This document shows, piece by piece, positions 28,801 to 29,571 of a stretch of 64,000 nucleotides of DNA. The stretch lies in NCBI RefSeq assembly GCF_030384885.1, contig NZ_CP128613.1. The stretch is one strand, 5' to 3'. Origin of the DNA: Escherichia coli (lineage in GTDB: Bacteria; Pseudomonadota; Gammaproteobacteria; Enterobacterales; Enterobacteriaceae). The notes under the pieces are model-generated. The model was given only the letters and a program-made list of their open reading frames with translations, did no database searches and was not told the DNA's origin. The position numbers and the translations under genes were made by a program. Each line of letters opens with the position of its first letter. Position 1 is the first letter of the stretch.

Positions 28801-28913
28801 ATCCCGTCGAGCATAAAATCTAATGCTCCTTGAATCAAAGTTCGGTGCGCGCTGGCATCGCAAAATTTCAACAACGCAGCGCGGCAAAAAAACTCCGCGC
28901 TGCTTTGTATGGT

Positions 28914-29528
28914 TCAATAATCATCATTGAAGGCTAGCGTGCGCTCTCGCGACCAGCGCGCATATAATTGCAGGGCCGCATTCACGACATCACGGTCATA
29001 GCTGAAAATGAATTCCTTAATATCACTTTCACTCTTTTCTTCCAGGCCCAGTATCTCAAGATACGCTTCATACTCTTCTTCATTATTCTGCGGATCAAAA
29101 ATAACCTTCAGAAAATGCATGTAGCTTTCAGGTCCACCGCTATCTTCAGGAGGACACATCATCGAGCCTTCAACGCACTCAAAAGGAGTCTGCATTTCAT
29201 CCCCAAAGTGGCTTTTATCTTCAAGGACGATTTCATGCTCCCAGCAATCACCAAAATCATAGGTGTAGGTTAATTTATTCCTTTTACTCTTAAGCAGTTC
29301 GTTTAGCCGAATTTCAGCTTCATCCGTCTCATTTACCGCTTCGGGGAATTCCGTATAAATTTGCTTTTTGAATTTAAAATTGTGCAAATGACTGTCATCC
29401 CAACCCATGACGATCTGCACAACATCGTGTAATCGATCAAGCGTCAGATTGGCGGGAACAACAAACCGGCGCCAGACTGCCGGTTCGACATGTTTAAGCG
29501 TAATTTTAAGTTGATAAAAGTAATTCAC
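28914..29528 (-). CDS. pRiA4b ORF-3-like family protein (function unknown), inserted between apaH and folA
   Basis: AT-rich ORF. Proposed start is the GTG at 29526-29528, 6 nt after an AAGGAG RBS, giving N-terminus (M)NYFYQLKITLKHVEPAVWRRFVVP…TLDRLHDVVQIVMGWDDSHLH…YTYDFGDCWEHEIVLE. The longer track ORF (to 29660) would overlap the folA 3' end. Family assignment by motif recall, not by search. Confidence 0.75.
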   Translation of the reverse strand: MNYFYQLKITLKHVEPAVWRRFVVPANLTLDRLHDVVQIVMGWDDSHLHNFKFKKQIYTEFPEAVNETDEAEIRLNELLKSKRNKLTYTYDFGDCWEHEIVLEDKSHFGDEMQTPFECVEGSMMCPPEDSGGPESYMHFLKVIFDPQNNEEEYEAYLEILGLEEKSESDIKEFIFSYDRDVVNAALQLYARWSRERTLAFNDDY

Positions 29529-29571
29529 ATCGGTCTCCTTATGCCATGTAAACACTTTATCTTGAGAAGAA

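Follow-up and report, generated by a model that had tools for sequence, protein, structure and literature searches.

A PF07929 (PRiA4_ORF3) gene as a rare allele of the folA-apaH interval in Escherichia coli

The interval between folA and apaH was analyzed in a 64,000-nucleotide stretch of an Escherichia coli chromosome (NCBI RefSeq assembly GCF_030384885.1, contig NZ_CP128613.1; this whole stretch is referred to as the window) and holds one intact gene, which encodes a 204-amino acid (aa) protein of the Pfam family PF07929 (PRiA4_ORF3). The locus is a rare and already annotated allele at a known hotspot and not a new kind of system. The newer points are modest and comprise (i) the displacement of the ccdAB genes, (ii) the positional orthologues of the gene across enterobacterial genera, and (iii) the occurrence of its close relatives in cassettes embedded among restriction-modification (R-M) genes, beside an anti-phage gene family with experimental support. 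The best explanation overall, which takes the identity of the gene, its slot, the replacement, its expression and its function together and which we hold with moderate confidence, is that a PF07929 gene from another Escherichia lineage replaced most of ccdAB, would be transcribed from the folA promoter and may encode an accessory factor in host conflicts with mobile elements. For PF07929, a very large family, a literature search (PF07929, MM3350, IS1096 TnpR) returned no experimental function, and members of the family recur on plasmids, in insertion sequence (IS) elements and in defence islands. The copy described here is a single chromosomal gene in a well-studied interval of a tractable host and is therefore a convenient place to test the role of the family.

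The gene and its family

The apaH gene (27952..28800, plus strand) ends at position 28800 and the folA stop codon occupies positions 29572-29574 on the minus strand, which leaves a gap of 771 bp (28801-29571), against only 77 bp in the K-12-type allele. A first-pass annotation, made from the DNA letters before any database search, had described about 770 bp with one minus-strand gene where K-12 has a short spacer, and these measurements agree with it. The sole intact minus-strand open reading frame (ORF) of the interval was called mechanically at 28914-29660 (248 aa), with an overlap of 89 nt with folA. The coding sequence (CDS) of the PRiA4_ORF3/MM3350-like protein was assigned to 28914..29528 on the minus strand (204 aa, GTG start, TGA stop), with a Shine-Dalgarno sequence AAGGAG read from the sequence at 29535..29540 on the same strand, 6 nt from the GTG at 29526-29528. 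This start is supported because the residue equivalent to the GTG-encoded M1 is the start of every homologue (M1 is invariant), because the ribosome binding site (RBS) and GTG are kept in the form AAGGAG(A/G)(C/T)CGAT-GTG in both the second E. coli carrier (L004, 98% allele) and an Escherichia relative (L005, 85%), and because the Prokaryotic Genome Annotation Pipeline (PGAP) annotates the identical 204-aa CDS (WP_001106129.1). The first-pass annotation had preferred the same GTG with its strong AAGGAG and had warned that the longer ORF call runs into folA, and both statements stand. The 248-aa version was rejected on account of this overlap and the lack of homologue support, and an antisense ORF of 101 aa (28968-29273) was rejected because it lies inside the conserved CDS.

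The protein matches PF07929 with an E-value of 5.2e-52 (176.5 bits; residues 4-168 on model positions 2-164 of 173), and this is its only Pfam domain. Membership in the family, which had been proposed in the first-pass annotation and for which the suggested Pfam profile search was run, is thus established, the peptide motifs quoted at that time being present in the protein. The gene is already annotated in RefSeq and in UniProt, where the identical protein is A0A1Q6BB05, and the exact protein is present on 587 contigs of a large contig collection. MM3350 (PDB 2I1S), the prototype and the only solved member of the family, was matched with an E-value of 1.2e-21, and the window protein is homologous to it and has the same fold. 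The family comprises 15,501 clusters (50% identity) matching at E<=0.001. Membership says nothing on mechanism, because the family has no known function. No NCBIfam model matched at E<=1, so that the RefSeq names of family copies must be based on evidence of a different kind; the L004 copy is labelled 'IS1096 element passenger TnpR family protein' by PGAP. Among 64 long relatives, fusions to extra PF07929 copies, TPR, SEC-C, UPF0149 and DUF domains were found, and to a resolvase in one; the fusion partners are mostly interaction modules. The PHROGs search gave only a weak match of unknown function, which was judged to be due to chance.

The product is a soluble, cytoplasmic protein; it is acidic (isoelectric point 4.6) and has no hydrophobic segment. 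Across 56 homologues 38 residues are invariant, among them W19, R20, H47, Y88, Y90, D91, G93, D94, W96, H98, C118, C125, P126, E128 and G131, all of which are present in the window protein; H34 is a further family residue that the window protein has, but it is not invariant among the 56. In 293 domains of distant relatives, H34, H47, H98, D91, D94, E128, C118 and C125 were each conserved at 94-99.7%, and this His/Asp/Glu/Cys set is proposed as the signature of a putative metal centre, either structural or catalytic. In the predicted fold the N-terminal half is beta-grasp-like and closed into a barrel, with helices following, so that the protein would be a beta-grasp/beta-barrel with a metal-type centre. 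Unlike MM3350, which lacks both residues, the window protein has H98 and C125, and its subfamily adds a conserved C-terminal helix (VN..L..Y.RWSR.R, residues ~179-196) beyond the PF07929 model. The barrel can be compared with the SNAPC3/SNAP50 beta-barrel domain (PDB 7XUR chain B), a subunit of a eukaryotic transcription factor, at 15% identity, any homology being hypothetical; a profile search of the PDB returned only 2I1S and hence no sequence link to SNAPC3. Fold searches matched solely family members in AFDB50 and two uncharacterized giant-virus proteins in BFVD.

The folA-apaH interval and its ccdB remnant

The distribution of alleles was determined among 5426 complete E. coli genomes. 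The ccdAB(O157) toxin-antitoxin pair occupies the interval in 2024 of them and an allele consisting of a DUF4291 gene, a hypothetical gene and a ccdA fragment in 543, while the short K-12-type spacer is typical of the sampled genomes that have neither. The PRiA4b allele was found in two genomes only, 2013C-4282 and 2017-02-2CC, which share 97.3% nucleotide identity; the allele of 2013C-4282 (NZ_CP027579.1) is 100% identical to the window across 1,200 compared bases, and the locus has the same coordinates in that record as in the window. K-12-type genomes lack the gene, as the first-pass annotation had expected, but the core interval that it took to be otherwise invariant is a known hotspot. 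Passages of PMC3184786 and PMC7167474 cite Mine et al. (2009) for calling the folA-apaH intergenic region 'highly variable' and describe decay of its occupants.

Next to apaH we found a ccdB pseudogene remnant (28797..28868, minus strand) that the first-pass annotation had overlooked, together with a hairpin at 28871-28908. The remnant consists of the last 23 codons and the stop codon (72 bp), overlaps the apaH stop by 4 nt, and was recognized by tblastn with CcdB residues 82-105 (95.8% identity, E=9e-12), by PGAP ('CcdB family protein, incomplete', pseudogene) and by DNA alignment to the O157 allele. CcdA had no match in the window interval 28801-29571. In a three-way alignment, compared with the flank of L005, the DNA that differs from the ccdAB allele spans 700 bp (28870..29569, without strand). 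On its left it meets the interior of ccdB at a microhomology, GAAA (28866-28869), that is common to ccdB and to the sequence that follows the gene's hairpin in the related Escherichia locus, and its right junction lies 2 nt past the folA stop codon. A repeat search found no terminal inverted repeats or target-site duplication at 28870-29569, a tRNA search found none, and no integrase or transposase was found within the interval or its flanks.

Compared with ccdAB(O157), the allele of the window occupies the same chromosomal slot and keeps 72 bp of ccdB as well as the 282-aa form of apaH, whose protein is identical to ApaH of ccdAB-bearing O157 strains (WP_000257187.1 in L001, L002 and L004); in contrast, ccdA and the part encoding CcdB residues 1-81 are deleted, and the PRiA4b gene is unrelated to ccdA or ccdB, has no partner in the interval and shows no sign of being a toxin or an antitoxin. 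What had been described as a plain insertion into the spacer is therefore better described as a replacement, since the end of ccdB is kept beside apaH while ccdA and the rest of ccdB are gone. Allelic replacement is the simplest reading of the junctions, from which we infer that a recipient chromosome with ccdAB(O157) gained the gene and its terminator from another Escherichia lineage. One crossover, a homologous one, would have taken place in or at the end of folA, and the second would have been an illegitimate join at the GAAA microhomology inside ccdB, so that ccdA and the 5' three quarters of ccdB would have been lost in one event; no transposase or integrase would have had a role. An E. 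ruysiae protein falls into the same 90% cluster as the window protein, and sister Escherichia species are therefore plausible donors.

Four other classifications of the locus were considered and rejected: an IS passenger of the IS1096 TnpR type (no transposase, no flanking repeats, and junctions in ccdB and at the folA stop), a type II toxin-antitoxin module ccdAB (just CcdB residues 82-105 are left, without a CcdA match), a serine recombinase or resolvase in the literal sense of 'TnpR' (no PF00239, PF07929 being the sole domain), and a recognized defence system (no significant PADLOC-DB v2 model match and no defence genes in the interval).

Several side observations concern the interval and its other occupants. 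Two perfect inverted repeats, one of 12 nt (28752-28763/29478-29489) and one of 10 nt (28760-28769/29536-29545), have one arm at the apaH 3' end and the other in the region of the gene's 5' end and RBS. Perfect 12-mer inverted repeats are expected by chance at about 0.03, and the 12-nt repeat is probably due to chance because it has a mismatch in the 85% relative. The DUF4291 allele, as seen in E. coli O111:H8 (L021:4600-5950), consists of the DUF4291 gene, a 155-aa hypothetical and a truncated ccdA, and neither DUF4291 nor the 155-aa neighbour had a PADLOC match. In the 85% Escherichia relative (L005:5700-7605), the PRiA4b gene is followed by DUF4291 and an apparent transposase-like ORF without annotation.

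Positional orthologues and expression signals

Orthologues of the gene occupy the same slot, with folA, the gene and a convergent apaH, in at least six Enterobacteriaceae genera. They were found in an Escherichia lineage whose core genes are ~95% identical to those of E. coli (85% protein identity), in a Superficieibacter-like metagenomic contig (68%), in Klebsiella michiganensis (56%), and in species representatives (55-68%) of Superficieibacter (two species), Phytobacter diazotrophicus, Enterobacteriaceae UBA3516 and a Pseudocitrobacter. The next-best relatives (45-53%; Enterobacter, Buttiauxella, Brenneria, Xenorhabdus and Photorhabdus) lie at other genome sites and are also lone genes. Across ten loci the pairwise identities of the gene product and of ApaH are correlated (Pearson r=0.82). 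Gene and flanks have therefore travelled together, with the gene evolving at two to four times the rate. The window gene is shown to represent Escherichia among these positional orthologues, which lie directly downstream of folA.

The ratio of nonsynonymous to synonymous substitutions (dN/dS) is ~0.2 against both the 98% and the 85% allele, which shows purifying selection on this intact gene. That the gene might be a neutral remnant, an expressed or silent hitch-hiker without function in E. coli, would fit its great rarity in complete genomes, its AT-richness and its location in a region of known occupant decay. We nevertheless consider it very improbable, given the dN/dS value, a frame that is intact in every copy seen, the conservation of RBS, start and terminator, the 38 residues that are invariant in 56 homologues and the presence of the exact protein on 587 contigs.

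The low GC content noted in the first-pass annotation was measured at 0.426 for the gene, against 0.529 for folA, 0.564 for apaH and 0.517 for the window; its use as a sign of horizontal acquisition, however, does not hold. Orthologues have a GC content 4-14 points below that of their own locus, except in L026 (S. electus) with a gap of 2.8 points, in the same slot of at least six genera and with a divergence that follows ApaH. Being AT-rich in every genus is therefore a standing property of the gene and not a mark of recent foreign origin.

Transcription signals were examined with a consensus scan and by RNA folding. The 43-nt spacer between folA and the gene (29529..29571, minus strand) has no hairpin and no promoter-like site (fold energy -4.4 kcal/mol). 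Upstream lies folA (29572..30051, minus strand), the co-directional neighbour and likely transcription source, itself preceded by a sigma-70-like site at 30110-30082. Read-through from the folA promoter is therefore inferred in Escherichia; translation would begin at the GTG with its own AAGGAG, and transcription would end at the hairpin. This GC-rich hairpin (28871..28908, minus strand) begins 5 nt after the stop codon and was seen as an inverted repeat with a core stem of 9 bp and a loop of 10 nt; its RNA folds at -22 kcal/mol (z=-3.64), and none of 200 shuffled sequences was as stable. In L004 and in L005 the gene is likewise followed by a homologous hairpin, and that of the window is probably the gene's own terminator, which arrived with the gene. 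The consensus terminator scan did not flag it, because its loop is longer than 8 nt and its tail is T-rich only in part. An Rfam scan of 28500-30400 gave only a sub-threshold microRNA match and no RNA element.

These signals also bear on the question whether the protein has a role tied to folA, either related to dihydrofolate reductase or folate or as a trimethoprim-stress factor. Such a role would agree with a placement and orientation that at least six genera share and with the lack of a terminator between folA and the gene in Escherichia. However, the folA-apaH adjacency is itself conserved, so that one ancient insertion would stay syntenic without a functional link. In most orthologues outside Escherichia a GC-rich hairpin separates folA and the gene, the subfamily members of 45-53% identity sit elsewhere with no folA nearby, and the gene is lacking in >99.9% of complete E. 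coli genomes. We therefore give this role very little credence, and we do not think that the product is a folate-pathway protein or a recombinase.

Among the loci outside Escherichia, L009, L012 and L024-L027 have the GC-rich hairpin after folA in common. In most of them, but not in L012, a conserved 'AATGTAC'-like motif comes after this hairpin and before the RBS of the gene. The Escherichia spacers carry a related motif, 'GTTTACATGG / GTTTGCATGG', and the motif may be a regulatory site. The lineage with the 85% allele is recorded as Shigella flexneri or E. coli, although its folA and apaH are only ~95% identical to those of E. coli. In this lineage carB lies directly before folA in L005, L006 and L008 and yaaU in L007, and kefF-kefC, in some contigs together with more genes, are missing upstream of folA.

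Contexts of relatives and proposed function

The relatives of the gene were compared by their genomic context. Among 72,556 plasmid records, 2,800 carry a PF07929 homologue. A 28%-identical paralogue lies between two resolvase genes beside qnrS1 (L022:5037-5582 and L023:5037-5582, the latter with ISKpn19). This qnrS1-linked arrangement occurs on very many enterobacterial plasmids, including IncX3 OXA-181 plasmids, and most of the 2,800 plasmid matches appear to be this one paralogue. In Pseudomonas phage Marin (L104:3953-4531) a homologue directly follows the three genes of an IS66-family element, another member lies in an ISL3 context, and a passage in Guerillot et al. (PMC3942029) places a PF07929 gene in transposons of the ISAzba1 group. 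These passengers (IS1096 TnpR, ISAzba1-group, ISKpn19/qnrS1 and phage Marin) share with the window protein the Pfam domain and the form of a small single-domain protein, at 28-35% identity. They adjoin transposases or resolvases, whereas neither a mobile-element gene nor a repeat lies near the window gene, which is inherited with its core flanks.

The contexts of the passengers raise the possibility that the protein is a DNA-binding accessory factor or regulator of transposition or site-specific recombination, as the name 'TnpR' implies, and the orphan of a vanished element. The family recurs beside transposases of unrelated families and beside serine recombinases, one of the 64 long relatives is fused to a resolvase, and the L004 copy bears the TnpR label; SNAPC3 is part of a DNA-binding complex, and the C-terminal helix has an invariant RW-R-R motif. 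We regard this role as distinctly improbable, because no transposase, recombinase or terminal repeat was found in or near the interval or at any folA-linked locus, and because a strongly acidic protein with an isoelectric point of 4.6 would be unusual among DNA binders. That family members accompany several unrelated transposase chemistries speaks for cargo and not for a mechanistic cofactor, and purifying selection over genus-level divergence without a nearby element argues for a function at the level of the host.

The closest non-enterobacterial homologues are 45-50% identical over their full length, have the same size and carry the C-terminal RWSR.R motif, and therefore belong to the same subfamily. 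Of 48 species-representative loci of these homologues (Desulfobacterota, Nitrospirota and others), 30 are in type I R-M or defence contexts. At 19 loci the homologue is followed after exactly 24 nt by a RhuM-family gene, at 16 a DUF6880 gene (encoding a 450-aa helical protein) lies 9 nt upstream, and Fic and HsdR are found within the flanks at 19 and 6 loci, respectively. Examples of the gene order, with X for the PF07929 homologue, are HsdS - TIR protein - DUF6880 - X - RhuM - Fic (L054) and HsdR - DUF6880 - X - RhuM (L067). The RhuM gene matches the PADLOC candidate PDC-S05 with an E-value of 7.6e-158, and PDC-S05 is reported, in a passage of a preprint, to be protective in E. coli against T7, T5 and T4. 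The cassettes differ from the window locus in having these partners at fixed distances (9 nt and 24 nt) together with hsd genes. The description of the window gene as a lone gene in the first-pass annotation thus holds for the Enterobacterales, with no intact partner in the interval, but does not extend to the 45-50% homologues in other phyla, which sit in conserved type I R-M cassettes.

Based on these neighbourhoods we tentatively propose that the protein may be an accessory factor, with a binding or sensing role, where hosts and mobile elements are in conflict, either in phage defence or in the maintenance of mobile elements, a function that we regard as possible though doubtful. It would either work by itself or rely on partners from other loci, and partner binding would go through the metal-stabilized barrel. 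A more far-reaching version, which we consider quite unlikely, is that the ~200-aa PF07929 subfamily is a new and widespread component of prokaryotic conflict systems, in defence or counter-defence, that works with DUF6880 and with RhuM/PDC-S05 or Fic within type I R-M loci. If this were true, the subfamily would be a metal-centred, SNAP50-like beta-barrel, the stand-alone gene would provide phage defence, modulate it or shield mobile elements, and the folA-apaH allele of E. coli would have exchanged one selfish or defensive module (ccdAB) for another. The product might also be a metal-dependent enzyme, a hydrolase or a modifying enzyme acting on a small molecule or a macromolecule, and not a non-catalytic binding module. 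The 94-99.7% conservation of His34, His47, His98, Asp91, Asp94, Glu128, Cys118 and Cys125 speaks for this alternative, and MM3350, which is without H98 and C125, might then be an inactive outlier; we consider an enzyme unlikely.

Several points weigh against the overall explanation given above, in which a PF07929 gene replaced most of ccdAB, is read from the folA promoter and acts in conflicts with mobile elements. With regard to the replacement, an ancestor could have carried the gene beside ccdAB and then undergone a deletion, and single-nucleotide polymorphisms in folA give no clear import tract. Furthermore, the two E. coli carriers differ at 11 of 615 positions in the gene and at 4 of 1329 in folA and apaH (Fisher p=0.001), so that divergence is greater in the insert than in the flanks, which one recent event does not account for and which hints at older allelic diversity or separate imports. 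The argument for co-transcription with folA, for its part, is that a simple consensus scan found no signals between the two genes. As to function, the proposal draws on neighbourhood association, because no experiment on PF07929 was found in the literature searched, and an enzyme would account equally well for the conserved His/Asp/Cys cluster. The only match to PADLOC-DB v2 was a weak and partial one to IetA (E=0.0055 over 61 residues), which was judged to be due to chance, and no NCBIfam model adds to it. None of the DUF6880, RhuM, Fic or hsd defence neighbours was found at the loci of E. coli and the other enterobacteria.

Elsewhere in the window, a transposase fragment and the gene of the type III secretion system effector espY1 lie between rluA and djlA (19759-20700). 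This further small accessory island is typical of E. coli that are positive for the locus of enterocyte effacement.

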